Assembly: GCA_964505185.1 (NCBI GenBank)
Contig: CAZDGM010000001.1
Span: 263,734 to 327,733, forward strand
Length of the DNA stretch: 64,000 nt
Reading direction: 5' to 3'
Source: an uncultured Thermodesulfobacteriota bacterium
GTDB lineage: Bacteria; Desulfobacterota; JBBIRW01
The position numbers and the translations under genes are program-made. The notes under the pieces are model-generated. The model worked only from the letters and a program-made list of their open reading frames with translations. It did not search any database and was not told where the DNA came from. Shown here piece by piece: positions 1 through 54,587 of the stretch; the stretch's first letter is position 1, and each line of letters begins with the position of its first letter.

Positions 1-608
1 TCCGCAATAGATACGGGGAGATTGGCAACGGATGAACAGCCTTCGATCCTTTTTAATCTCCCCCTCTCGAGGATTTCTACTGGTGAGATCGACTCTACAG
101 GATATATTTCAGCCTCTATTGAGCCACCTCCTTTAGGATAGAAGCCGTATGATCTGATCCTTAAACTGATCCTGATCCCTAACATATTTAGAAAATCTGC
201 GAACACCTTCTCAGCATAATCGTAAATGGGACTGAAGGGAACATGTGTTCCGCCTTTTATAAAGATCCTTGAAACATCTCCGGCAAAGATAAGGGAAGGT
301 ATAAGGGTTTGAAGGAGCAGTATAGATGATCCCGCGGTGCCTATATTAAATGAATACTCTCCTGCCTTTATCCTTCTGGGTGAAAAAATCAGTTCTGTTG
401 AGCCTATGGACCCTCCCTCCATATCTGCATCAGAAATTTCCTTTGCTGCCTTTATGGAGGCGAGATGCTGTGGCATGAGGCCTGGTTTTTCCCTGCCCTT
501 CCTTATGTTAAATATTCTGAAGGGTTTTCCTGTTATACAGGAAATACTGAGGGCGGTTCTCAGGATCTGCCCACCACCTTCACCATAGCTTCCATCTATA
601 ACTATCAT
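1..608 (-). CDS. rtcA: RNA 3'-terminal phosphate cyclase RtcA (N-terminal part; gene runs off the window start)
   Basis: Reverse-strand translation from ATG (rc of 606-608) reads MIVIDGSYGEGGGQILRTALSISCITGKPFRIFNIRKGREKPGL.QHL, the conserved RtcA N-terminus. There is no stop before the window edge. This ORF is not in the six-frame track because it is open-ended. Confidence 0.8.
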   Translation of the reverse strand, partial: MIVIDGSYGEGGGQILRTALSISCITGKPFRIFNIRKGREKPGLMPQHLASIKAAKEISDADMEGGSIGSTELIFSPRRIKAGEYSFNIGTAGSSILLLQTLIPSLIFAGDVSRIFIKGGTHVPFSPIYDYAEKVFADFLNMLGIRISLRIRSYGFYPKGGGSIEAEIYPVESISPVEILERGRLKRIEGCSSVANLPVSIA

Positions 609-687: not shown

Positions 688-2145
688 ATGCCACATGCAC
701 TTCCATTTCGAAAAATAAAAGATTTTACCTATGAGATTCCGAAGGATTTCAAAGATGGGATGCGCGTTCCAGCCAGGATATATGTAACAGAGAAACTGAT
801 GAAAGAGATGGACTCGCAGGTCTTTGAACAGATAACAAATGTTGCAACACTTCCGGGTATTGTAAATTATGCCCTCTGTATGCCAGATGCACACTCCGGT
901 TATGGATTTCCCATCGGTGGTGTTGCTGCAATGGATCTGGAGGAAGGTGTAATATCACCAGGGGGTATTGGTTTTGATATAAACTGTGGAATGAGACTTG
1001 TTCTTACTTCCCTGACATTTGATGATATTAAATCAAGGATCAAAGAGATTGTTGATCTATTATTTGAAAGGGTTCCCTGTGGTGTGGGAAGCACCGGATT
1101 TCTGAAACTTAACAGAAATGAATTCATGGAGGTTCTTTCTGAAGGAGCAAGGTGGTGTGTAAGAAAGGGTTTTGGCTGGGAGGAGGATCTTGAAAGAACA
1201 GAAGAGGGGGGATGTATTCAGGGTGCGGATCCATCAAAGATCAGTGAAAAGGCAGTTGAAAGGGGAATAAATCAAATAGGAACCCTAGGATCAGGCAACC
1301 ACTATCTTGAGATTCAGATAGCAAAACCTGAAAACATATACGATGAAAGACTGGCAAAGATCTTCGGCATATCAATACCTGATCAGGTTGTAGTGATGTT
1401 TCACTGTGGTAGTCGTGGATTCGGGCATCAGGTTGCAACTGATTATCTTCAAATATTTCTTAAGGTTATGGAGAAGAAATACGGAATCAGCGTAAGGGAT
1501 AGGGAACTTGCCTGTGCACCCTTTGATTCTCCTGAAGGTCAGGATTATTTTGCTGCCATGAAGTGCGGGATAAATATGTCATTTGCAAACAGACAGGTAA
1601 TAACCCATAGAATAAGAGAGGTTTTTGAAAAGGTATTCAAGGAGGATGCAAAGAAGCTCGGGATGCAGATGGTTTACGATGTTTCACACAATACAGCAAA
1701 GCTTGAAAAACATTTTGTTAATGGAAAGGAGACGCAGCTTATTGTTCACAGAAAGGGAGCTACACGTGCCTTTGCTCCTGGAATGGAAGGGTTGCCTGAA
1801 ATCTACAGAGAAACAGGTCAGCCTGTTATTATTGGCGGGAGCATGGAGACAGGGAGCTATCTACTTGCAGGGATAAGTTCGGGGGCAAAGAGTTTCTTCT
1901 CAACAGCGCATGGTAGTGGAAGGACGATGAGCAGAACGAAGGCAAAGAAGTTATTTGAAGGAAGGGCTCTCCAGAGACAGATGGAAGAAAAGGGAATTTA
2001 CGTGAGAACGGCGTCCTTTTCAGGACTTGCTGAGGAAGCTGGTGCTGCTTACAAGAATATAGATGAAGTAGTTGATGCCACGGAGTTCGCAGGACTTTCA
2101 AAAAAGGTTGTGAGATTCATTCCAGTTGGAAACATCAAGGGTTAA
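688..2145 (+). CDS. rtcB: RNA-splicing ligase RtcB (3'-phosphate/5'-OH RNA ligase)
   Basis: The 500-aa frame carries RtcB hallmarks (MPDAHSGYGFPIGGV, GGIGFDINCGMRL, GSGNHYLE, HNTAKLE). Likely true start is ATG 688, preceded by AGGGAGG. The upstream ATG 643 has no RBS. The alignment to archaeal RtcB begins near Met16. Confidence 0.9.
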   Translation: MPHALPFRKIKDFTYEIPKDFKDGMRVPARIYVTEKLMKEMDSQVFEQITNVATLPGIVNYALCMPDAHSGYGFPIGGVAAMDLEEGVISPGGIGFDINCGMRLVLTSLTFDDIKSRIKEIVDLLFERVPCGVGSTGFLKLNRNEFMEVLSEGARWCVRKGFGWEEDLERTEEGGCIQGADPSKISEKAVERGINQIGTLGSGNHYLEIQIAKPENIYDERLAKIFGISIPDQVVVMFHCGSRGFGHQVATDYLQIFLKVMEKKYGISVRDRELACAPFDSPEGQDYFAAMKCGINMSFANRQVITHRIREVFEKVFKEDAKKLGMQMVYDVSHNTAKLEKHFVNGKETQLIVHRKGATRAFAPGMEGLPEIYRETGQPVIIGGSMETGSYLLAGISSGAKSFFSTAHGSGRTMSRTKAKKLFEGRALQRQMEEKGIYVRTASFSGLAEEAGAAYKNIDEVVDATEFAGLSKKVVRFIPVGNIKG

Positions 2146-2159
2146 ATTATTGTTTACAT

Positions 2160-3473
2160 ATGATCACAAAAACTCCTCTTACGCTGATAACGGGATATCT
2201 CGGCAGTGGCAAGACAACCCTTCTTAGAAATATCGTAAGGGATGCAAGGAAAAAGATTGCCATTGTCGTAAATGAATTCGGGGAGATCCCCATAGATAGC
2301 AAGGTTCTGGAGGGGAAGAATATCAGGATGGCTGAGCTCGCCGGAGGATGTGTATGCTGTTCACTATCAGGGGAATTTGAGGCAGCAGTTGAGGAGATAA
2401 TAAATGAAATAGGACCCGATATAATTTTTGTTGAGACGACTGGTCTTGCTGAACCGGATTCACTAATAGATATCATAGGTGAGGCATTAAAGATGGTGAA
2501 ACTTGACACAGTGGTCACTGTTGTTGATGCGGATGCCATGGTTAGATTTCCGGAAATAGGCTATACAGGGAGGATACAGATTGAATCGGCTGATGTAATT
2601 TTAATAAATAAGATAGATCTGGTCCATGAAGAGGATCTCTTACAGGTTGAGGAAAGGGTAAAGGAAATTAACAGAAGGGCAACCCTTTTCAGAACCTCTT
2701 TCTGCAATATAGATACAGAGCTTTTATCTGGGATGGGAATAGAGAGATATTTATCACATGCTGTTCATGCCCAACATGATATGGATTACTTTACTTTCTG
2801 TACAAATGAGATAATCAAAAGGGAAAGATTTGAGGAGATGGTAAAGGGCCTCTCTGGAAAGATATACAGGGCAAAGGGATTTGTAAAATTTTCCGATGGT
2901 TCCTACCTGTTCAATTATGTCTCTGATCGATGGGATTTTGAAGAATTTGAGTCAGAGGGTACGCGTCTTGTATTTATCGGTCACCGGGCTGGTCAAATAA
3001 AGGACGAGGTGATTTCTCAATTAGAAAGCATGAAATTGAAATTTGAGTACAGATTTCTTGAAGATCTGGCCACCGCGGATGTCGCATTTGAGGCAAAGGG
3101 TGATACGATTGAGGAACTTTTTATTTCCTCTGCGCTTGCAACAACAAATATTATGATACTTCAAACAGGTCAGATTGATCTTAAAGATAGAAGAGAGATA
3201 GAAATTGAGGCTGAAGAACTGGATCTTCTCCTTTTTAATCTTCTTCAGGAGATGATCTTTTTCAAAGATACAGAAAAACTGATCTTTGGAGAGTTTAATG
3301 TGAAAATTGGAAAGAAGGGCGATAAATGGATGCTCAGGATGAAGGCAGCCGGGGAAAGGATCAATCCGGAAAAACATATGCTTCATCTTGATGTGAAGGC
3401 AGTGACACTGCACATGCTTGAGGTGAGGAAAGATAATAATGGATGGATAGCTCATGTTATTCTTGATGTTTAG
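2160..3473 (+). CDS. Fusion protein: COG0523/CobW-type G3E GTPase (putative metallochaperone) N-terminal, archease C-terminal
   Basis: N-terminal part has P-loop GYLGSGKTTLL, VNEFGE, the GCVCC metal-binding motif and the CobW_C-like KGFVKFSDGSY...LVFIG. C-terminal ~146 aa align along their whole length with archease (ATADVAFEAKGDTIEELF...INPEKH...KAVTLH...GWIAHVILDV). Confidence 0.85.
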   Translation: MITKTPLTLITGYLGSGKTTLLRNIVRDARKKIAIVVNEFGEIPIDSKVLEGKNIRMAELAGGCVCCSLSGEFEAAVEEIINEIGPDIIFVETTGLAEPDSLIDIIGEALKMVKLDTVVTVVDADAMVRFPEIGYTGRIQIESADVILINKIDLVHEEDLLQVEERVKEINRRATLFRTSFCNIDTELLSGMGIERYLSHAVHAQHDMDYFTFCTNEIIKRERFEEMVKGLSGKIYRAKGFVKFSDGSYLFNYVSDRWDFEEFESEGTRLVFIGHRAGQIKDEVISQLESMKLKFEYRFLEDLATADVAFEAKGDTIEELFISSALATTNIMILQTGQIDLKDRREIEIEAEELDLLLFNLLQEMIFFKDTEKLIFGEFNVKIGKKGDKWMLRMKAAGERINPEKHMLHLDVKAVTLHMLEVRKDNNGWIAHVILDV

Positions 3474-3499: not shown

Positions 3500-5383
3500 A
3501 TGTGGCGGAAATTCGATAAGGCAGAAACCGTATCCCTTCCTGAAATTTACGAATCAGTGAAGATCCCCCATTACTGGAAATGGTGGAAGCGTCTCTTTGC
3601 TTTCCTTGGTCCTGCATATCTTGTTTCTGTGGGATACATGGATCCGGGTAACTGGGCGACGGATCTTGAAGGGGGAGCGAAATTTGGATACAGGCTCATA
3701 TGGGTTCTCCTTGCGAGCAATCTGATGGCTGTTTTGCTGCAAATGCTTTCTGCTCGTCTGGGTCTTGTCACGAGATGCGATCTCGCACAGGCATGTCGTG
3801 AAGCATATCCGCCTTTTGTATACTATCCTCTGTGGATCATCTGTGAACTTGCAATAGCTGCATGCGATCTCGCTGAAGTCCTTGGAACGGCGATAGGTTT
3901 GAATCTTCTTTTTGGGATTCCGCTTATAATCGGTGTCAGTTTAACAGCTCTTGATACAATCCTTCTCCTCTTTATACAGCGATACGGGATTCGCAAATTT
4001 GAAGGGATGATCCTCGGTCTCGTATTTGTCGTAGGTTGTTGCTTCGTTGTTGAAATCTTTCTTGCTAAACCTGACTTCAGATCAATTATAGGTGGTTTTA
4101 TTCCCACAATTGACAGAGAAAGCCTCTATGTTGCACTGGGCATGCTCGGGGCAACTGTTATGCCACACAACCTTTACCTTCATTCAGCGCTTGTTCAGAG
4201 CAGAGCAGTTGAGCGAACAGATAAGGGCATCCGGGCAGCAGTGCGCTTTAATCTTATAGATACATTTATTGCTCTCAATGCTGCTTTCTTTGTGAATTCA
4301 GCAATACTTGTTCTCTCATCTTCTGTTTTTTATTCTCGAGGTATTGAGGTGGTTGAGATTCAGCAGGCGCACGAACTTCTCTCACCACTGCTGGGAACAG
4401 GTCTTGCCTCTACTGCCTTTGCTGTTGCCCTTCTTGCTGCAGGTCAATCTTCGACACTCACAGGAACACTTGCAGGGCAGGTTGTGATGGAGGGGTTTAT
4501 CCGGATAAAGATTCAGCCATGGGCAAGAAGACTCATTTCTCGATTACTTGCGATCATTCCTGCAGTTATTGTTATTGCAATAAGCGGAAGCCATGGGACA
4601 TACAGGCTTCTTATACTGAGTCAGGTGATTCTCTCTTTGCAGCTTCCCTTTGCAATTGTTCCCCTTATCCAATTCACAAGTGATCGTGAATGGATGGGAA
4701 AATTTGTGAGCCCTCTATGGGTAAGGGTCCTTTCATGGCTTGTTGCACTTTTTATCATAAGTCTTAATGTCTGGCTTGTTTGGGTGACGGTGTCTGAATG
4801 GAGGATGAAAGCTATGTGGGTTGATTTTATAGTAATTCCAATTGGTGCATATTTGATGCTATTATTGGGGTATATGGGATTTGGACCGTTTATTAAGAAA
4901 TTATTAGAAAAGAAACCACCCTCTGTACCGGAACCCGTGCTACCATCCATTCAGGAGGACACTGGGTATGGGAAGATAGGGGTTGCTCTTGAGGTGAGGG
5001 AAACGGACCAAAAGATACTCAAGCATGCACTTGCCCTTGCAACGAGATACAATGCAGAGATTATTCTGATTCATATTGTTGAGAGTGCAACTGCTCAGGT
5101 CTGGGGCGGAACTGTGGAGGATAGGGAAAGAACAGAGGACGAGGATTATCTAATAAAACTTTCAGAAAAGATCAGGGCACAGGGAATAAGGGCGAGTTTC
5201 CGAATAGGATTTGGAAATGCAGCAAAAGGGGTTGTAAAAATAGCGAAAGAAGAGAATCTTGACCTTCTTGTCCTCGGGAGTCATGGCCACAAACATATAA
5301 AAGACTGGATATATGGTTCAACAGTTTCTGCTGTTCAACATGATATAGGTGATATACCCATCCTCGTTGTAAAAGGGACATAA
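3500..5383 (+). CDS. mntH: NRAMP-family divalent metal (Mn2+/Fe2+) transporter MntH fused to a C-terminal universal stress protein (UspA) domain
   Basis: GYMDPGNWATDLEGG (DPGN motif) and 11-12 TM helices. The C-terminal ~140 aa have the Usp fold signature (ILIHIVES..., LLVLGSHGH..., ILVV). Confidence 0.85.
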   Translation: MWRKFDKAETVSLPEIYESVKIPHYWKWWKRLFAFLGPAYLVSVGYMDPGNWATDLEGGAKFGYRLIWVLLASNLMAVLLQMLSARLGLVTRCDLAQACREAYPPFVYYPLWIICELAIAACDLAEVLGTAIGLNLLFGIPLIIGVSLTALDTILLLFIQRYGIRKFEGMILGLVFVVGCCFVVEIFLAKPDFRSIIGGFIPTIDRESLYVALGMLGATVMPHNLYLHSALVQSRAVERTDKGIRAAVRFNLIDTFIALNAAFFVNSAILVLSSSVFYSRGIEVVEIQQAHELLSPLLGTGLASTAFAVALLAAGQSSTLTGTLAGQVVMEGFIRIKIQPWARRLISRLLAIIPAVIVIAISGSHGTYRLLILSQVILSLQLPFAIVPLIQFTSDREWMGKFVSPLWVRVLSWLVALFIISLNVWLVWVTVSEWRMKAMWVDFIVIPIGAYLMLLLGYMGFGPFIKKLLEKKPPSVPEPVLPSIQEDTGYGKIGVALEVRETDQKILKHALALATRYNAEIILIHIVESATAQVWGGTVEDRERTEDEDYLIKLSEKIRAQGIRASFRIGFGNAAKGVVKIAKEENLDLLVLGSHGHKHIKDWIYGSTVSAVQHDIGDIPILVVKGT

Positions 5384-5396
5384 ATAAGCAGGAAAT

Positions 5397-6431
5397 CTAA
5401 TTATTTCTTCTGATCGTTAGAATCATAAGGGCTGCCATAATGATTGATTGAGAGATTACTTTTGCAGGATTTAGCTCAACAGATGGAAGAAGGAATAGCA
5501 ATCTTTCAAGAAATATACCTATAAGTATCAATACCGATATAATTGAGACGATCGATGGAATCGTTTTTGCCTTTCTTGAAAGGAGTGTTAGAAAAGGGAG
5601 GAAGAATAGCGAGGGGAGTATAACAAGCGAGATATTCCTGTAGGGCGATAATTGAGTCCTCACAAACAGAAAGCTTACCTCTTCAGGAATGTTTCCATAC
5701 CAGATGACAAGGAACTGCGCATAGAAAAGTCCTGCCCAAAGTAAGCTGAACCCGAAAATTAGTGTAGCAATATCCCTCAAAGTTTTGATTAAGCCTTCAC
5801 TTGACTGGCTTTCGGTTTTTCTCATAAGAAACAAACATATAATCCCTGAAATTGCAATACCGGAATATATGGATTCAATGAAAAAATAACCTCCAAAGAG
5901 AGTGCTGTACCACGGATATTCGAGAGACATTATCCAGTCAATGGCAATCATTGATTGTGATGCAACAAAGAACGCTATATAGATTGAGCCATAGATGTTT
6001 TTTCTTTCACTATCAATTAATGATTCCCTGGAGAACTTTCGTGCAGATAAAAAGGAAAGAAAAAGCAGGAAGAAGTTTCTTGCTATAAAGAATGGCCTGT
6101 TTAACCATAATCCTTCACTTTTAACCCATGGATATATATCCAGCTCATGAATAAGAAAGAGGAAAAGGATTGAGTGAAGCAATAACAACGGGTAAACGGA
6201 AAGAAGGTATCTCTTCAGCGGAGCTATCCATTTAGCCTTTGCAATATTAGCTGCTGCAACAAGGGCAATGCAGCCCTGCGTGATGGCTATCCAATATGAA
6301 AGAGTGAAGAGAAGTGAACCCTTTGTTATCCCTGCAAAAAACTCAATAGCAACAATAAAAAATCCACCGATAAAGAGATATAAGAAGTAATAGTTAATCC
6401 TCATCTCCTTTTCCATCATCTTCTCCATCAT
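5397..6431 (-). CDS. actF: Alternative complex III membrane subunit, ActF-like (NrfD/PsrC family polytopic protein)
   Basis: Polytopic membrane protein at the distal end of the act cluster. NrfD-like motifs (FLVIWYGNIPEE). Overlaps actD stop. Confidence 0.5.
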   Translation of the reverse strand: MMEKMMEKEMRINYYFLYLFIGGFFIVAIEFFAGITKGSLLFTLSYWIAITQGCIALVAAANIAKAKWIAPLKRYLLSVYPLLLLHSILFLFLIHELDIYPWVKSEGLWLNRPFFIARNFFLLFLSFLSARKFSRESLIDSERKNIYGSIYIAFFVASQSMIAIDWIMSLEYPWYSTLFGGYFFIESIYSGIAISGIICLFLMRKTESQSSEGLIKTLRDIATLIFGFSLLWAGLFYAQFLVIWYGNIPEEVSFLFVRTQLSPYRNISLVILPSLFFLPFLTLLSRKAKTIPSIVSIISVLILIGIFLERLLFLLPSVELNPAKVISQSIIMAALMILTIRRNN

Positions 6432-6849
6432 CTATCACTATTGTGAATCTGTTATCAAATTCCATGGGATTAATAATCCATCGAATATCAGGGAGGCGTG
6501 AGAGTAAAAGGAATCCGAGAAATGATGTGATCGCTCCAAAAAGAATTGTCAATTCAAATGCAATAATAACAAATGCAGGGATGGATATCAGTGGCTTTCC
6601 TCCTGTTATAAGAGGCCAGCTTAAAACTGTATAAGTCGTGAATCCGAAGCCTGTAATAGTTCCAGTGATAGCACCAAGAAGGGTAATGATATTCAGTTTG
6701 CTAACCGGCCTTCCAAGGATCTCTTCTACTTCTTCGACGGGGAAAGGGAGATATATTTGCATCCGATCAGCAGGTACACCTTTTTTTAAAAGCTCCTTAA
6801 GTTTTTCGATAAATTCGTGTTTGTCTTCAAATAAATATTCCTTTTTCAT
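6394..6849 (-). CDS. actD: Alternative complex III subunit ActD (membrane-anchored)
   Basis: About 150-aa protein with a central TM pair. Start ATG overlaps actC stop (ATGA), with GAGG RBS. Position is between actC and actF. The track ORF starts 45 codons upstream without an RBS. Confidence 0.55.
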   Translation of the reverse strand: MKKEYLFEDKHEFIEKLKELLKKGVPADRMQIYLPFPVEEVEEILGRPVSKLNIITLLGAITGTITGFGFTTYTVLSWPLITGGKPLISIPAFVIIAFELTILFGAITSFLGFLLLSRLPDIRWIINPMEFDNRFTIVIDDGEDDGKGDED

Positions 6850-8159
6850 TCGTGAACCTCTTTTAATTCTGTAATGGAAAGGATCGGAAGGACCTTCGCA
6901 AATATGAGAAAAAGCATGAAAAACATTCCGAAACTTCCAAGCGTGATTCCTATAGCAACAGGGCTGAATGATGGGAGTCCCCATGCGTAAGGATCAAAGT
7001 CTCTGGAAAGGGAAGTAACTATTATTACGAATCTTTCCATCCACATACCAACATTAACAAAAAGTGATGATATGAATAAGAATTTTATGTTTCTTCTTAA
7101 TTTTCCTATGAAGAGAAAGAGCGGGATAATGGAGTTGCAGATAATCATTATGGCGAAAAATATCCAGAAATCACCAAATGCCCTGTACCTGAATACTTCC
7201 ATCTCGAATATATTTCCACCATAAAATGCCATGGAGAACTCCACGATATATGAGTAGGTTACTATAAGTGATGTAAGAAGCAGTATTTTAGCGATACTAT
7301 CAAAGTGATCTAAGGTTATATATTTTTCAAGGGAAAAGAACTTTCTCATCGGAACAACAAGCGTTATTACCATTGCTGTTCCAGAAAATATAGCACCAGC
7401 AACAAAATATGGTGCAAATATGGTTGTATGCCAACCAGGAATAATGCTCATAGCAAAGTCCCATGAAACAACAGAATGAACTGAAACAACCAGTGGAGTT
7501 GCAAATGATGCAAGAAACATGTATAGTCTGTTATAGTGCCTCCATTGATCCGGTGTTCCCTGCCATCCAAGTGAGAGGAAAGAGTACAGGCGTTTCTTCC
7601 ATCCCGTTGAATATCTTCTTGCAATAGCGAGATCGGGAATCATACCAACGTAAAAGAAAATAAGGCTTACCGTAAAATAAGTCCCTACAGCGAAAACATC
7701 CCATATAAGCGGGGATCGAAAGTTAACCCAGAGCATTCTCTCATTTGGGTATGGAAGTAACCAGTAGAAAAGCCACGGTCTTCCAAGATGGATTATAGGG
7801 AAGAGTCCGGCAGTCATAATGGCAAAAACGGTCATCGCCTCCGCAGATCTATTGAAACTGCTTCTGAATCCTGCGCGGAATAGAAAAAGAACAGCTGATA
7901 TAAGTGTTCCTGAATGGGCGATTCCAACCCAGAATACGAAATTTGTTATATACATATACCATCCAACAGGATGTGTTTTACCGGAGACACCCATCCCTGT
8001 TTTTATCTGGTAGTACCAGAGAGACATGCCTGTTATAAACAGGATTGCAGAGATGCAAAGGAAGATCCAGTACTGGATATTCGGTTTCTTCATTGCAGCA
8101 AGAACATCCTTTTCAATCTGATAACGAAACTCAATGGCTTTGGAAATTGCGTTATTCAT
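6846..8159 (-). CDS. actC: Alternative complex III quinol-binding membrane subunit ActC (NrfD/PsrC family)
   Basis: About 10 TM helices in an NrfD-family polytopic protein directly after actB. True start MNNAISK has an AAAGAGGAAAAGAG RBS. The longer track ORF would overlap actB by 164 nt. Confidence 0.75.
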   Translation of the reverse strand: MNNAISKAIEFRYQIEKDVLAAMKKPNIQYWIFLCISAILFITGMSLWYYQIKTGMGVSGKTHPVGWYMYITNFVFWVGIAHSGTLISAVLFLFRAGFRSSFNRSAEAMTVFAIMTAGLFPIIHLGRPWLFYWLLPYPNERMLWVNFRSPLIWDVFAVGTYFTVSLIFFYVGMIPDLAIARRYSTGWKKRLYSFLSLGWQGTPDQWRHYNRLYMFLASFATPLVVSVHSVVSWDFAMSIIPGWHTTIFAPYFVAGAIFSGTAMVITLVVPMRKFFSLEKYITLDHFDSIAKILLLTSLIVTYSYIVEFSMAFYGGNIFEMEVFRYRAFGDFWIFFAIMIICNSIIPLFLFIGKLRRNIKFLFISSLFVNVGMWMERFVIIVTSLSRDFDPYAWGLPSFSPVAIGITLGSFGMFFMLFLIFAKVLPILSITELKEVHE

Positions 8160-10968
8160 CTCTTTTCCTCTTTCCAAGATAATATATTGATGGTTCTGTT
8201 CCGAGTTGCTCAAATATGCGATATGAACGGTCTGACTTTGAAAGTCTGTATAGAAATGAATTCTTATCAAGAATATTACCAAATGTAATTGCACGGGTTG
8301 GGCATGTCTGAGCACATGCAGGGATCACTTCCCCATCCCGTATGGACCTGCCTTCGTCCTTTGCTATATCACGTGCCCTTCTTATACGTTGTATGCAGAA
8401 TGTGCACTTTTCCATTACACCTGCCTGCCTTGCCGATACCTCAGGATTTAACATTCTGTCCCTTGGATATTCCCATTCATGAGGATACCAGTTAAATCTT
8501 CTGACCTTATATGGACAGTTATTCGAGCAGTATCTTGTTCCAACACATCTGTTATAGATTTGTGCATTTATTCCTTCAGGATTATGATATGTTGCATAAA
8601 CAGGGCAGACAGGCTCACATGGTGCATAATCACATTGCTGACATAGCATGAGATGGAATCTTATTCCATCCTTTTCATCATAAAATGGCTCAAGCCTGAT
8701 CCAGGACATCTCTCTTCCTTTGAGATGCTCATCAATTCCTACAATAGGAACATTGTTTTCGATATAACAAGCAGCAACACATGCAGAGCATCCTATACAG
8801 AGATCGAGATCGATAGCCATAGCCCATCGGTAATTTTCATGTTTATGTTCAGGATATAAACTCTCTTTGTGTTTTTTATTATTTTCCCTTCTATGTATGG
8901 GATAAGGTATTATACCCCTCCCTTCCTGTGACATTGAGCCTGAAAGGATTGGTATGGAAACCTTTTTTCCCGTTTTTCTTATATTTATACCTTCAATGTA
9001 TGAAAGGATTTCACCGCTTCTGGGATCGGTCAGGCCACTGTAATCTATCGATCCTCCGATCTGGACAATAAATATATCCTCTCCTATTCCTCTCTGAATC
9101 TTTGCAGGAACTCTTATAGACCATCGGTCCTTGCTAATTTCAAGCTCATCCCTTTCTGAGATATTCAATCTTTTTGCCGTTTCCTCTGAAAGGGAGACCC
9201 AGCTTCCATATGATATCGTGCTTATAGGATCTGGAATCTCCTTTAAGAGCTCGAGATCAGAAGATCTCCCATCAAAAAACCTCAGGGAAGGAGAAAAAAT
9301 AAGAAGGGGGGTTTTCATCGCTTCTGGATATTTGAGATCCCTGAGGAAGAGTTGTGCATTCTTTTCATTTAGTGATACCCTTACAGTGGAGGGGTTTTCT
9401 TCATGATAACCTTTTTCGATAAACATGTTTAGAGAATCTTTTCCATATCTTTTCTGGTAATTTCCCAAAACAAAGGATTTAAAATCTTCAGAAACAACTC
9501 TTCCACTTCTCCTCATAATTTCGATGATTAGGTCACCATCCGATTTTGTATTGAAAATGGCTTTTGTTGCAGGCTGCATAAGATTAACAAGTCCTCTTCT
9601 TGGATTTGCATCTCCCCATGATTCAAGAGAGTGAGAAAGAGGGAGGATAAGATCGCATAGTTTTGTTGTCTCATTGAAGGAGTCCGAAAGGGAGATCTTA
9701 AATCTTGCCCTAAGGAGTTTTTCTTTAATTCCAAGATGCGGAGGAAAGATAGAAACAGGATCTGTTTTAAGGAGAAAGAGTAAACCTATATCATTCTCAT
9801 CGATTGTTTTAAGGAGATTAACAAATTCCTCTGTTGTTCCTACCCTTGAGTAATTCTCTTCTCTGCTGAAATCAACAAGGCTACCAATAGATCCTGAAGC
9901 CCACTGGATTAATCCTGAGAGAACAGCCACGTCAAATCCACTGTTACTGCTGGTTGATACGCCGCCTGTTATAAGAAGCGGCTTTTTTGAATTAAGATAA
10001 GCATCCCTTATGAGAAGGATTTCTTCCTCTCTGAGCCCTGTTTTCTCTATCAGGAGATCCATAGAAAGAGGAGGAATTAATTGACCGACTGAAGCAGGAA
10101 TGTTGCCGATTGTTTTTCTTTTTTGAATAGAAGTTAGGATATAAATGAGAAGATATATCTCCGTTCCAGGATTGATTATAAATCTTTTATCAGAACATAT
10201 TCCTGTTAATGAAAGGTGTGGTTCAACATGAAACCACCTCAGGTTATTGTTTTTCCGTGCAATGGAGAATTGAACTGCATGTGAAACGGGACTGATAAAT
10301 GTCTCAAAAATATCAGCACCGATTGTTAAAAGAAAATCAGCATCCTTAATGTTATAGTAAGGTATCGAATATTTGCCGAAAAGAAATGAATTTGCCCTTC
10401 TGATTGCAGAATAATTATATATCTCAAGTTCCGGAAGTCTCTTTATATTGAATTCATGACAGAATTCATCAATGAGTGAGGAGAGGGAACCTGTTGTTCT
10501 TGATGAGAGAAAGAGGTTGTATTTTTTATCGGTCTTATGTTTTTCGATCTCCGAAATTATGGTCTGAAATGCTTGATCCCAGCTTATTGATCTGAAAACT
10601 CCATCCCTGTCCTTAGCCATGGGATTTTTTATACGGTGGGGGTTGTAGAGTCGTGTTATGGAGGCCTGACCCCTTATACATAGTGTGCCATCATTGATGG
10701 GATGATCCGGTATACCTTCAAGCTTTACAGGGTAAATACCCCTTTCCGTATCAAAGATCTTCTCATATGCTTTAACCTGAATCCCGCAGAGGGCAGGGCA
10801 TTCCGTGCAGGTTGTGTTGTAAAATACTGTCTCACCAGGTATGATCTCCTTTTCGGGTGGTATAGCGTAGGAAATGATTTTTCTTATACCTTTGTCAATG
10901 CCACAGGATGTAAGAAATGTTGATCCTGTAATAAAGCCAAGGAACTTCATGAAGTTTCTTCTATTCAT
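8152..10968 (-). CDS. actB: Alternative complex III subunit ActB (Tat-targeted molybdopterin-oxidoreductase-like domain fused to 4Fe-4S ferredoxin domain)
   Basis: Twin-arginine signal MNRRNFMKFLGF...TSCG. The N-terminal ~650 aa are molybdopterin-oxidoreductase fold. The C-terminal has 4x Cys clusters (CIGCSACVAAC, CQQCDYAPC, CPYK...). The 938-aa fused architecture is typical of ActB. Confidence 0.8.
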   Translation of the reverse strand: MNRRNFMKFLGFITGSTFLTSCGIDKGIRKIISYAIPPEKEIIPGETVFYNTTCTECPALCGIQVKAYEKIFDTERGIYPVKLEGIPDHPINDGTLCIRGQASITRLYNPHRIKNPMAKDRDGVFRSISWDQAFQTIISEIEKHKTDKKYNLFLSSRTTGSLSSLIDEFCHEFNIKRLPELEIYNYSAIRRANSFLFGKYSIPYYNIKDADFLLTIGADIFETFISPVSHAVQFSIARKNNNLRWFHVEPHLSLTGICSDKRFIINPGTEIYLLIYILTSIQKRKTIGNIPASVGQLIPPLSMDLLIEKTGLREEEILLIRDAYLNSKKPLLITGGVSTSSNSGFDVAVLSGLIQWASGSIGSLVDFSREENYSRVGTTEEFVNLLKTIDENDIGLLFLLKTDPVSIFPPHLGIKEKLLRARFKISLSDSFNETTKLCDLILPLSHSLESWGDANPRRGLVNLMQPATKAIFNTKSDGDLIIEIMRRSGRVVSEDFKSFVLGNYQKRYGKDSLNMFIEKGYHEENPSTVRVSLNEKNAQLFLRDLKYPEAMKTPLLIFSPSLRFFDGRSSDLELLKEIPDPISTISYGSWVSLSEETAKRLNISERDELEISKDRWSIRVPAKIQRGIGEDIFIVQIGGSIDYSGLTDPRSGEILSYIEGINIRKTGKKVSIPILSGSMSQEGRGIIPYPIHRRENNKKHKESLYPEHKHENYRWAMAIDLDLCIGCSACVAACYIENNVPIVGIDEHLKGREMSWIRLEPFYDEKDGIRFHLMLCQQCDYAPCEPVCPVYATYHNPEGINAQIYNRCVGTRYCSNNCPYKVRRFNWYPHEWEYPRDRMLNPEVSARQAGVMEKCTFCIQRIRRARDIAKDEGRSIRDGEVIPACAQTCPTRAITFGNILDKNSFLYRLSKSDRSYRIFEQLGTEPSIYYLGKRKRDE

Positions 10969-10980
10969 ATATCGCTCCGT

Positions 10981-11493
10981 TCATTTATGGCATGTGAGAC
11001 AATCTGTTGGTGCATCATTTACCCTGTGACATCTCACACACCAGCCCATCTTTAAAGTTCTTACTTTTCTTACCCTGTCCATGATCTGTACTTCACCGTG
11101 GCACTGCGAGCATTCTATCCCCTTCTTTATATGTCTTTTGTGTGAGAAATATACATGATCGGGAAGTTTGTGAATCCGGATCCATTCTATGGGTTTACGC
11201 TGTTCCCAGTATGAAGTAAGTTTCTTTATTTCAGGCCTTTCTGTGGCAACTGCCCTGTGGCAATCCATACATTTCTGGATATGAGGGATTCCCGCATTTT
11301 TTGATTTATCAGCGTAAACATGACAGAAGTTGCAGGGAAGACCAACCTTTGTGACATGTATACGGTGGCTGAAGGCAATGGGCTGAATGGGTGACCCATC
11401 ATAGTAGTAGTTGTAATAGCCCATTGCTAAAAATATGATGGAGAAGATGGATGCATAGCATGAAATGGTGGCAAGAACAAGGGATCTTCTCAC
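10981..11493 (-). CDS. actA: Alternative complex III pentahaem cytochrome c subunit ActA
   Basis: Five CxxCH motifs (CNFCH, CMDCH, CSQCH, CVRCH, CLTCH) in 170 aa with an N-terminal TM anchor. Confidence 0.8.
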   Translation of the reverse strand: MRRSLVLATISCYASIFSIIFLAMGYYNYYYDGSPIQPIAFSHRIHVTKVGLPCNFCHVYADKSKNAGIPHIQKCMDCHRAVATERPEIKKLTSYWEQRKPIEWIRIHKLPDHVYFSHKRHIKKGIECSQCHGEVQIMDRVRKVRTLKMGWCVRCHRVNDAPTDCLTCHK

Positions 11494-11502
11494 ATTCTCC
11501 TC

Positions 11503-12738
11503 CTACTTTTTCTCTCCGATCTCCTTCAGGAGATAGAATGAGACAGCCTCAATTTCATCATCTGGAAGTCCCAGGTTCGGCATTGGAGGATAGGATGGAT
11601 CTTTTTTCACAGGATTCTTTATGAATTTTTTAAGCTCATCAACCTTATTCCTGTAAGATGGAATAACAGCATTTAAAGGAGGACCAACAACCCTTTGGGT
11701 GAAGCTGTGACAGGCTGAGCAGATTGTTTTGAAAACCTTCTCGCCCTTTTCAAGGATTGCCTTCTCATCCAATTCAACCTTTTTCTTTTCAGCCCTTACC
11801 TCTTCTTTAACAGCCTGTGCTTTTGCTAATAATAACATGGTATTTTCTCTATGTGATGTTTCTCTTTCGATATATTCCATGCCGGAAACAATCATAAATT
11901 GCAATATGAAAAGGATGAGTATGCTATATTTGTATTCGGATTTTATTCCATCAAGGCGGTTGTAAAGGAGCCAAATGGAGATAGATGATGCCAGTGTTAA
12001 GAGTATTGATAGCAGAAATATAAAGGGTGATAGAGAAGGCTCAGGGAGGGTATAGATATACCAGAGGGAAAGCGGAGGTATAAAGATAAGCAATATCAGT
12101 GAGGAATAGGTTATGGCATTTCTGAGGTTAAAAAAAACTGCAAAGGTTGAGAAGGCAAATGAAAGCGCAAGAACAATAATCCGCAGGTATCTTACAACCG
12201 CATTCCATGAGATAAGCGGATCAATTGGATTCAAAAATAGATGGACCCTCTCCCTGTTTGATAGTGATGAAAGAACAGATGAGAGGATGTAAAGGGAGAA
12301 AAGCAGTGTCAGGATTGAGAAGATGGATGAAAGCAGTGCGATTGCGGGTTTTGTGCGAATAAGGTTTACTGTTGATCGATAAATATAAAGAAATATAAAT
12401 GAAACGAAGAGAAGGATATTGGAGAATAATGAAAGATTGACGAGATTCTTGTTCTCTATCATACCTGTTTCAATAAAAACAAGGAGTGCTATAATTGGCG
12501 GCAGGAGTCCTGCAAGAAATAAAAGACCCTTGCTCTTTGCAATGGTATTTATGATCGAGTGGGCGAGTTCAGATGAGAAGTGATTAGTTCCCCTGCCTCG
12601 GAGAAGAAGGAGGGAGAGGATCAAATATCCGAGAATAATGGATATGAAGGGGTAGAAGATAACAAATGCAAGTATTGAAATGTATCGAAGCGTTATTATA
12701 TGTTCAGGTTTGATAGCGATGGGATACTCCTGCATCAT
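11503..12738 (-). CDS. Polytopic membrane protein (~8 TM) with C-terminal monohaem class-I cytochrome c domain (CSACH...PPMP)
   Basis: Hydrophobic helices across ~300 aa, then a coiled-coil linker (EEVRAEKKKVELDEKAILEKGEK), then CSACH and a Met ligand region (SYPPMP). Located between coxB and actA. Confidence 0.6.
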   Translation of the reverse strand: MMQEYPIAIKPEHIITLRYISILAFVIFYPFISIILGYLILSLLLLRGRGTNHFSSELAHSIINTIAKSKGLLFLAGLLPPIIALLVFIETGMIENKNLVNLSLFSNILLFVSFIFLYIYRSTVNLIRTKPAIALLSSIFSILTLLFSLYILSSVLSSLSNRERVHLFLNPIDPLISWNAVVRYLRIIVLALSFAFSTFAVFFNLRNAITYSSLILLIFIPPLSLWYIYTLPEPSLSPFIFLLSILLTLASSISIWLLYNRLDGIKSEYKYSILILFILQFMIVSGMEYIERETSHRENTMLLLAKAQAVKEEVRAEKKKVELDEKAILEKGEKVFKTICSACHSFTQRVVGPPLNAVIPSYRNKVDELKKFIKNPVKKDPSYPPMPNLGLPDDEIEAVSFYLLKEIGEKK

Positions 12739-12801
12739 CAGGATTTTAATTTATATTATAGAAAAATAATAAAATTCATTCCCTATTTTAATTTTTTAAT
12801 A

Positions 12802-13395
12802 TCACTGCCCCGCTTCATACCATTTTACAAAGTCCTCTTCCGGCACCACAATTAGCTTTGAAAGCATATAGGAATGTCTGAGACCACAATACTCAGCACA
12901 TAATATATCGTATTCTCCCTGTATGTCTGTTTTAAACCAGAGGTGCGTTTTCATACCGGGGACAGCATCCTGTTTTATTCTTAAGGCGGGTATATATAGG
13001 CTGTGGATTACATCCATTGATGTAATGGTTAGCTTTACTGGCCTGCCGGCTGGCACATAAAGTTGATCGCTTTCTTTTCCATTTTCATACCTGAATGTCC
13101 ATGACCACATGCGTGCCGTAACATTTACATCCATCGATCCTTCGGGTATTTTACCCAGAACCCTATACCCTGTCCATCCGTAATAGAACATCGATAATAC
13201 AAGGATTATCGGGATAATGGTCCATGCGATCTCGAGGTAGGGATTTTCTGTGATATCAGCGGGCACCGGATTTCTCTTTCTGTTGAACCTGATAAGACAG
13301 TAGATCATGAAAACAGTGATTGAAATTAGAAGAAAGACTGAGATACCAGCTATATAGAAGAATGTGTTATCTACTCTTTCTGCAAAATTTTCCAT
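12802..13395 (-). CDS. coxB: Cytochrome c oxidase subunit II (CuA cupredoxin domain; no fused cytochrome c domain)
   Basis: Two N-terminal TM helices. CuA ligands HSLYIP ... CAEYCGLRHSYM. Confidence 0.85.
   Translation of the reverse strand: MENFAERVDNTFFYIAGISVFLLISITVFMIYCLIRFNRKRNPVPADITENPYLEIAWTIIPIILVLSMFYYGWTGYRVLGKIPEGSMDVNVTARMWSWTFRYENGKESDQLYVPAGRPVKLTITSMDVIHSLYIPALRIKQDAVPGMKTHLWFKTDIQGEYDILCAEYCGLRHSYMLSKLIVVPEEDFVKWYEAGQ

Positions 13396-54463: not shown

Positions 54464-54587
<124 letters not shown>

Follow-up and report, generated by a model that had tools for sequence, protein, structure and literature searches.

A COG0523 GTPase fused to archease beside rtcB: a rare form of a widespread gene unit

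Archease is the known activator of the RNA ligase RtcB; it inserts a conserved tip into the active site of the ligase, and His-guanylylation requires it (PMC10944509, PMC3973293). The two genes are known from a "tRNA splicing operon," where their shared orientation and close spacing imply co-expression (Desai et al. 2014, PMC3973293). Here, we describe a locus with the same compact, co-oriented layout in which archease is joined to a COG0523 GTPase. The gene occupies positions 2160 to 3473 of a 64,000-nucleotide (nt) stretch of DNA, hereafter the window, from an uncultured Thermodesulfobacteriota bacterium (GCA_964505185.1, contig CAZDGM010000001.1, positions 263,734 to 327,733, forward strand). 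No GTPase or CobW gene is mentioned for the described operon, whereas in the loci compared here a COG0523 gene lies between rtcB and archease or is fused to the latter. Comparison with other genomes identifies this gene as the rarely seen, fused version of a unit of rtcB, COG0523, and archease that is otherwise widespread.

Archease, known from Pyrococcus horikoshii (4n2p) and from human in complex with RTCB (8odo/8odp), is a free 16-kDa protein. Two of its Asp residues and the carboxylate of its C terminus make up a third metal site (site C), and it also contacts the gamma-phosphate of GTP (PMC10944509, PMC3973293). Its N and C termini lie together at the tip (PMC3973293), and the binding of RNA and of archease to the RtcB cleft is mutually exclusive (PMC10944509). 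The metal sites of RtcB itself are rich in Cys and His, and the strongest activity of the ligase is obtained with Mn2+ (PMC10944509, PMC3973293). An earlier interpretation of this DNA, made without database searches (the sequence-only reading), held that RtcB strictly needs Mn2+; this is too strong, since the identity of the metal is debated and some RtcBs accept Co and Ni, Zn being inhibitory (PMC10944509). Zn2+ equimolar with Mn2+ abolishes both guanylylation and ligation by RTCB (PMC10944509), and the same has been reported for P. horikoshii RtcB. Whether archease arrives with a metal already bound is an explicit question in the same study (PMC10944509).

The other half of the fusion belongs to a family of putative metallochaperones. 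Characterized G3E proteins all act in metal-center assembly (2024 review), and the COG0523 members with known or proposed clients are CobW (Co, B12), Nha3 (Fe nitrile hydratase), ZNG1 (Zn, METAP1), and the Zn-linked ZigA, ZagA, YeiR, and YjiA. CobW and Nha3 aside, little has been learned about which clients the bacterial COG0523 proteins serve (2024 review). The CxCC motif of these proteins holds metal more tightly with GTP than with GDP, and in the accepted model, the metal is handed to the client upon hydrolysis (2024 review), which depends on RxKG, an arginine-finger "self-GAP" motif of the C-terminal domain (CTD) (PMC13001444). The window GTPase shares with the named members the G1 to G4 motifs, CxCC, a CTD with the RxKG arginine finger, and the YjiA-like fold. 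The subfamily to which it belongs differs from them in being short (~294 amino acids [aa]), in lacking a His-rich stretch, in its own signature residues, and in its putative client, an RNA ligase that prefers Mn2+ in vitro. For CobW and Nha3, genomic linkage indicates the client, and the same logic was applied here.

Organization of the fusion protein

The gene and the parts of its product, in window coordinates, are the following.

2160..3473, + strand: COG0523 GTPase-archease fusion gene, ATG at 2160, stop at 3471-3473, 437 aa
2175..2687, + strand: G domain (residues 6-176), Pfam cobW, 5.8e-48, profile 1-178/180
nt 2193-2219, + strand: Walker A (G1), G12-YLGSGKT-T20, with the pattern GxxGxGK(T/S)
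nt 2349-2360, + strand: CxCC metal motif C64-V-C66-C67, preceded by G63, in the switch I region
nt 2433-2444, + strand: Walker B/G3, E92-TTG95, with the pattern ExxG
nt 2607-2618, + strand: G4, N150-KID153, with the pattern NKxD
2790..3029, + strand: COG0523 C-terminal domain (residues 211-290), Pfam CobW_C, 1.8e-11
nt 2868-2879, + strand: RxKG motif R237-A-K239-G240 in the C-terminal domain
3030..3047, + strand: fusion junction (about residues 291-296, ..ES-MKLK-FEY..), placed by comparison with the unfused loci L013 and L014
3048..3470, + strand: archease domain (residues 297-437), Pfam Archease, 2.2e-38, profile 1-136/136
nt 3078-3080 and nt 3465-3470, + strand: archease metal site C ligands D307 and D436 plus the V437 C-terminal carboxylate
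nt 3396-3398, + strand: archease phosphate-binding Lys K413 (in DVKAVTLH)

Together, the cobW, CobW_C, and Archease domains fill the whole 437-aa protein, and both halves are also recognized by NCBIfam. The Pfam profile search thus confirms the two domains that the sequence-only reading had assigned to 2160-3473, coordinates that are exact, and the GCVCC motif named in that reading is present as C64-V-C66-C67. The automatic JGI name of the fusion, "G3E family GTPase/SHS2 domain-containing protein," likewise records both domains without interpretation. Orthology to CobW (TIGR02475, 124.4 versus a cutoff of 332.1), to YjiA-type proteins (NF008578, 111 versus 361), and to ZigA (NF038288, 98.7 versus 600) was considered and rejected; because these scores fall far below the equivalog cutoffs, the GTPase is a COG0523 member but the orthologue of no named one.

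To describe its relatives, we define the subfamily as GTPases with at least about 41% identity to that of the window and the signature GGCVCCSLxGEFEAA; the signature residues include G62, E74, A75, A76, E79, E98, D125, P131, G134, and N252. In the alignments, Walker A, CxCC, ExxG, and NKxD are invariant in 11/11 fusions and in 149 subfamily GTPases, where each of the three CxCC cysteines is 100% conserved. Walker A is also invariant in 35 outgroup COG0523 sequences, and RxKG is 100% conserved in subfamily and outgroup alike. The 11 fusions, which range from 41% to 88% identity, share without exception GxxGxGKT, GGCVCCS, ExTG, NKxD, and RAKG in the GTPase half and, in the archease half, D307, K413, D436, and a terminal I or V.

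Comparison with solved structures gives a consistent picture. By sequence, the best solved relative of residues 6-190 is Escherichia coli YjiA (1nij, 9.9e-26) and that of residues 305-437 is P. horikoshii archease (4n2p, 94 bits), whose D12, K117, D141, and I142-COOH align to D307, K413, D436, and V437; the human counterpart of K117/K413 is K156. The window domain thus has in common with the known archeases a full-length Pfam match, the fold, the site C ligands, and the phosphate-binding Lys, besides the location of its gene beside an rtcB of the archease-dependent type. It differs in forming the C-terminal third of a 437-aa protein, with a GTPase joined to it about 4 residues ahead of the first strand. 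It also lacks the His that is conserved at position 9 in P. horikoshii archease; A304 stands there in the window, and A, T, I, or V in the other fusions. MTH1598 (1jw3) has Val at this position, so H9 is not universal.

An AlphaFold2 model of the fusion protein, built from 68 sequences, reached a mean predicted local distance difference test (pLDDT) score of 80, with low confidence only in the CxCC loop (61-69) and the linker between G domain and CTD (199-206). A Foldseek search with this model matched its N-terminal part to YjiA (1nij, E 7.5e-17 over 329 columns), which supports the YjiA-like fold; the high root mean square deviation (rmsd) against 1nij reflects a different domain orientation. 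The C-terminal part matched 4n2p with a template modeling (TM) score of 0.86 and an rmsd of 1.6 Å, 1jw3 with a TM score of 0.87, and the archease of the human RTCB complex (8odo) with a TM score of 0.74. Judged from the sequence, both halves are complete and under selection.

A rare fusion within a widespread unit

The partner that recurs beside the fusion is the ligase gene, which in the window precedes it directly.

688..2145, + strand: rtcB, archaeal/eukaryal-type (archease-dependent type) 3'-P/5'-OH RNA ligase, 485 aa, Pfam RtcB, 3.2e-170

The mechanically called open reading frame (ORF) opens at 643. A GGGAGG Shine-Dalgarno sequence precedes the ATG at 688, the resulting 485 aa match the length of homologues, and ATG 688 is probably the true start. 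The stop codon lies 14 nt before the fusion gene, so that the position directly downstream of rtcB noted by the sequence-only reading is correct. Its alignment with P. horikoshii RtcB (7lfq/1uc2, 564 bits) spans the entire protein, and the five metal ligands are identical to those of that protein (FDINCG, D95/C98; GSGNHY, H203; FHCGSRGFGH, H234; DVSHN, H329); the nucleophile H404 is also conserved (TAHGSGR).

Apart from the fusions, the top matches to the fusion protein are stand-alone COG0523 proteins of ~294 aa, 50 to 62% identical to the GTPase half. The three of these that were inspected all lie in strings of rtcB, an optional small gene, COG0523, and archease. This arrangement was quantified at 80 COG0523 loci, one genome per species, which were queried with the RtcB, GTPase, archease, Nramp, and RtcA proteins of the window. 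In these species-representative genomes, rtcB lies upstream on the same strand in 26/29 subfamily loci, usually within 0-150 nt, and archease lies within 8 kb in 27/29, usually overlapping or no more than ~100 nt downstream. Among the more distant COG0523 loci, neither gene was found (rtcB 0/51, archease 0/51; Fisher p = 4.8e-18). The metagenomes gave the same result, with rtcB upstream in 15 of 18 subfamily loci, the remaining 3 of which end at a contig edge, and with both genes absent from the outgroup (rtcB 0/62, archease 0/62). When the two sets are pooled, rtcB adjoins 41/47 subfamily loci and 0/113 other COG0523 loci, and the window itself fits this triad, with rtcB 14 nt upstream and archease fused. 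Clustering of 424 ORFs from 39 loci returned RtcB, COG0523, and archease as the only recurrent neighbors.

The triad is found in Nitrospirota, Cyanobacteria, Verrucomicrobiota/Udaeobacter, Acidobacteriota, Chlamydiota (Waddlia), Latescibacterota, Tectomicrobia, Gemmatimonadota, Syntrophobacterales, a candidate phyla radiation (CPR) bacterium, and DPANN archaea. Its composition varies in detail. In some cyanobacterial-type triads, a DUF2127 gene (149 aa) stands between rtcB and COG0523 (L009 7549-7998, L010 2497-2946), and in L011, a Uma2-family endonuclease gene occupies this place on the opposite strand. The rtcB genes of some DPANN triads contain inserts of ~1.4 kb (L032 4091-6973, L034 4409-7312) that are consistent with inteins. 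In some metagenome-assembled genomes (MAGs), the frames of the triad genes are broken (rtcB in L029; rtcB, GTPase, and archease in L036; GTPase in L040); these are probably long-read or assembly errors, not pseudogenes, and the three loci were excluded from the alignments.

In contrast to the wide distribution of the triad, its fusion is rare. All three domains occur in one protein in only 11 clusters among 5.8 billion protein clusters: P0001, which is identical to the window protein, P0002 (88% identity), P0003-P0010 (46-50%), and P0029 (41%). Among 1.84 billion representatives at 50% identity, the window protein was the sole full-length fusion in the best 150 matches. The genome and metagenome loci described above include no fused triad (0/47). 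The survey of COG0523-archease fusions and adjacencies near rtcB that the sequence-only reading had proposed therefore finds the fusion rare and the unfused triad widespread. Where upstream sequence is available, rtcB is directly upstream in 5/6 fusion lineages, with gaps of -4 to 60 nt.

The possibility that the fusion is an artifact, whether an assembly or frameshift error or a recent and functionless loss of a stop codon, is hardly credible. It draws some plausibility from the broken frames in L029, L036, and L040 and from P0205 (513 aa), an apparent RtcB-COG0523 fusion (Pfam RtcB plus cobW) that we rejected; its low-complexity stretches are garbled in a manner typical of frameshifts, it has a Met at the junction, and it is most likely an assembly or read-through artifact of an adjacent rtcB-COG0523 pair. 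The 88% orthologue of the window protein, on the contrary, recurs as an intact ORF in three independent assemblies with the layout rtcA (divergent), rtcB, fusion, and Nramp-Usp, and the 11 fusion clusters have clean junctions, keep every catalytic residue, and come from independent fusions in at least two clades. For practical purposes, these assemblies and conserved fusions refute the artifact. Further joining of the unit was not seen: the best 120 matches to a concatenated RtcB-plus-fusion query were RtcB and intein-containing RtcB (PF14890) only, with no RtcB-COG0523 or triple fusion. A distinct and uncharacterized architecture was encountered in proteins of ~600 aa (P0184, P0225, P0229, P0230, P0249, P0251, P0262, P0264, and P0265), which carry in their C-terminal half a COG0523 module 32 to 38% identical to the window GTPase; the N-terminal half of P0184, ~300 residues, has no Pfam match.

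The origin of the window fusion can be read from its closest relatives. Both halves are closest to unfused Nitrospirota genes, with 61 to 62% identity for the GTPase and 53 to 58% for archease. In the unfused Nitrospirota loci L013 and L014, the GTPase ends in ...QLESCEE and its stop codon, followed by 1 nt and then by MPYVFLEDMATAD, whereas the window reads ...QLESMKLKFEYRFLEDLATAD at the matching point, an in-frame and seamless join with ~4 linker residues. The junction has thus taken the place of three elements of the unfused pair, namely the GTPase stop codon, the 1-nt spacer, and the archease start codon. A neighbor-joining tree of the GTPase part, bootstrapped with 500 replicates, places the window protein and P0002 beside the unfused Nitrospirota sequences in 96% of them, and a single clade of all fusions was recovered in 0%. 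Since the fusions are never monophyletic, fusion occurred on two or more occasions; as many as five events are suggested by the tree, although its deeper nodes are weak. In the window lineage, on this comparison, the COG0523 and archease genes were fused in situ.

Taken together, the association of rtcB with 41/47 subfamily loci against 0/113 other COG0523 loci and the fusion on at least two independent occasions strongly support a protein dedicated to RtcB, as the sequence-only reading had proposed.

Neighboring genes in the window

Two further genes flank the rtcB-fusion pair, and neither they nor the unfused form of the operon had been mentioned in the sequence-only reading.

1..608, - strand: rtcA N-terminal part (RNA 3'-phosphate cyclase), running off the window; translation starts MIVIDGSYGEGGGQILRTALS
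3500..5383, + strand: MntH-type Nramp protein with a C-terminal universal-stress-protein (Usp) domain, 627 aa, preceded by a GAGGGG Shine-Dalgarno sequence

The rtcA gene is divergent from rtcB, with ~80 nt between their start codons. In the 88% relative (L001), a 348-aa RTC/RTC_insert gene lies at this position, and the window rtcA is 92% identical to it (tblastn). Among the other triad loci, rtcA was found in a single cyanobacterial one (L017), and no RtcR-type regulator was seen nearby.

The Nramp-Usp gene opens 26 nt past the fusion gene on the same strand, and no terminator-like site was found on the + strand between 2100 and 3500. Its ORF matches Pfam Nramp (3.9e-135) and, in the last 140 residues, Usp (1e-21). 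The first 430 residues score 596.9 bits against NF001923, "Mn(2+) uptake NRAMP transporter MntH" (cutoff 430), and the metal-site motifs YMDPGNW and VMPHNLY (DPGN/MPHN) of an MntH-type protein are present. This neighbor is kept in the 88% relative and absent from all other triad loci; metal transporters and regulators were considered as recurrent neighbors of the triad and rejected, as none recurs in the clustering and the Nramp gene is lineage specific.

An Rfam scan of the window at gathering thresholds gave no riboswitch or other RNA element near the operon, where the intergenic gaps of 14, 26, and ~80 nt leave little room for one. Its sole match was a 5S rRNA gene at 54471-54583 (+ strand, 99.9 bits), which stands alone between two minus-strand ORFs; no 16S or 23S rRNA or tRNA genes were found across the 64 kb. 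Downstream of the operon, the gene string at 5397-13395 (- strand) matches, by position and size, the ActD, NrfD, molybdopterin-FeS, and multiheme cytochrome c genes of the 88% relative (Pfam labels of L001), in which COX2 and COX4 genes come after the ActD/NrfD-type string. Assigned through these labels, the string looks like an alternative-complex-III-like module beside heme-copper oxidase genes.

A putative metal factor tethered to the RtcB activator

With regard to function, we lean toward the view that the COG0523 half is a module, gated by GTP and tethered to the activator of RtcB, that delivers or exchanges metal. [quoted passage not shown] In this way, RtcB would be correctly metalated at the moment of activation. 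In most organisms, the task would fall to rtcB, COG0523, and archease as separate genes that are transcribed together. The Cys/His-rich metal sites of RtcB and its inhibition by Zn, together with the question of the archease metal, would create the need for such a factor. With the archease termini at the tip and a linker of ~4 residues, the chaperone module would adjoin the RtcB active site upon docking. The order of the domains agrees with the chemistry: archease is the C-terminal domain in 11/11 fusions, each ending in ...LD[IV], as would follow from the need to keep its carboxylate free. Moreover, the MntH-type importer in the window operon is a hint that the unit also takes in the supply of Mn2+. 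Sequence and gene order establish the domains, their intact motifs, the synteny, and the repeated fusion, whereas physical action on RtcB, metal transfer with its direction and the metal concerned, and insertion, above all that of Mn, are inferred. Tentatively, the proposal may be extended to the whole subfamily, from DPANN archaea to cyanobacteria, as a dedicated RtcB metal-center maturation or proofreading factor with archease as its docking adaptor.

Such a module would resemble the nickel insertion systems HypB/HypA and UreG/UreE-F-D (SIMIBI-class G3E), in which the GTPase is paired with a docking or adaptor protein touching the active site of the client, and the transfer of metal is gated by GTP hydrolysis. 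HypB and UreG belong to a different G3E branch, however, and in the window the adaptor would be archease, itself a catalytic activator with a metal site, and the client a nucleic-acid enzyme. The metazoan PYROXD1 is likewise an accessory protein, one that shields RTCB, whose active site depends on metal and Cys, from inactivation linked to metal. It protects the active-site cysteine of RTCB, but it is an unrelated flavoprotein with a redox mechanism, restricted to eukaryotes.

Several observations weigh against metal delivery by the COG0523 module. Many rtcB-archease operons function without COG0523 (PMC3973293), so the GTPase would be an accessory and no requirement. Three archaeal or CPR genome loci of the subfamily have no rtcB neighbor, the fusion P0008 has no adjoining rtcB, and the Nramp link is restricted to the window lineage, about two genomes. 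On the chemical side, YeiR and YjiA bind Mn(II) with a dissociation constant (Kd) of at least 1e-4 M, as opposed to pM for Zn(II) (PMC7895991), and with such weak binding by CxCC the delivery of the canonical RtcB metal is not obvious chemistry.

This chemistry bears most directly on the alternative that the module inserts Mn2+ into RtcB sites A/B or archease site C, which we consider unlikely and which would make it the earliest example of a G3E chaperone specific for Mn. The highest activity of RtcB with Mn2+, the MntH-type importer in the same gene string of the window lineage, and the subfamily-specific acidic residues near the metal site (E74, E79, E98, and D125) would all agree with it. 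Nevertheless, the thiolate-rich CxCC is a poor ligand set for Mn, YeiR and YjiA showed no measurable Mn binding (PMC7895991), and the Nramp link, besides being lineage specific, involves proteins that also carry Fe2+ and other divalent metals. The Cys-rich site argues against simple Mn2+ insertion, the measured Mn(II) affinities make a plain Mn insertase chemically doubtful, and the difference between weak Mn(II) and pM Zn(II) binding renders it less attractive than the loading of a softer metal or the removal of Zn.

Removal of Zn is the core of a second alternative, metal proofreading, in which the GTP-bound CxCC would remove inhibitory Zn2+ (or Co, Ni, or Cu) bound at the RtcB Cys/His sites or at the carboxylate site of archease, the weakly binding but abundant Mn2+ would then occupy these sites, and GTP hydrolysis would free the scavenged metal. 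Here the abolition of RTCB guanylylation and ligation by equimolar Zn2+ (PMC10944509), the pM binding of Zn by COG0523 proteins against at least 0.1 mM for Mn (PMC7895991), and the complete conservation of the three CxCC cysteines all count in its favor, and the MntH neighbor would furnish the Mn that cannot be chaperoned. We nonetheless regard it as fairly unlikely, since demetallase activity is not known for any COG0523 protein and transfer from donor to client upon GTP hydrolysis is the model generally accepted, and we infer it here purely by reasoning. A regulatory GTP switch without metal transfer, which would sense GTP (also the RtcB cofactor) or metal status and gate the access or release of archease, appears very unlikely. 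A timed release factor would be useful where archease and substrate RNA compete for the RtcB cleft, GTP is a ligand common to RtcB and the GTPase, and the arginine finger of the CTD implies regulated hydrolysis. Yet the absolute conservation of CxCC in the subfamily points to essential metal binding and disfavors a mere switch, as does the service of all characterized G3E proteins in metal-center assembly.

Both domain families and the rtcB-archease operon are already known; apparently new are COG0523 as a conserved third member of this operon, its fusion to archease, and the new subfamily with its putative client. The impression of the sequence-only reading that the arrangement is undescribed agrees with our search: no paper linking COG0523/CobW with RtcB or archease was found in the full-text papers searched, which did not include the 2021 COG0523 similarity-network review (Edmonds/Giedroc), so that a prior mention there is possible. 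RtcB and archease are absent from the 2009 COG0523 comparative-genomics paper, the 2022 review, and the 2024 Chem Rev.

The finding introduces no new principle but provides a concrete candidate client for an enigmatic chaperone family. COG0523 proteins are ubiquitous, almost none of their clients have been identified, and for this subfamily gene order and repeated fusion point to RtcB plus archease. If the proposal holds for the whole subfamily, a G3E chaperone would for the first time have a nucleic-acid enzyme, RtcB, as its client, and the subfamily would be the first G3E chaperone to secure a Mn-dependent enzyme against mis-metalation by Zn, by Mn loading or by Zn removal; it would also answer how the third (archease) metal gets to the RtcB active site. 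The fused chaperone-activator offers a single polypeptide for probing both RtcB metalation and the archease metal. More broadly, these results suggest a link, in many bacteria and archaea, between metal homeostasis and the repair of RNA and ligation of tRNA.

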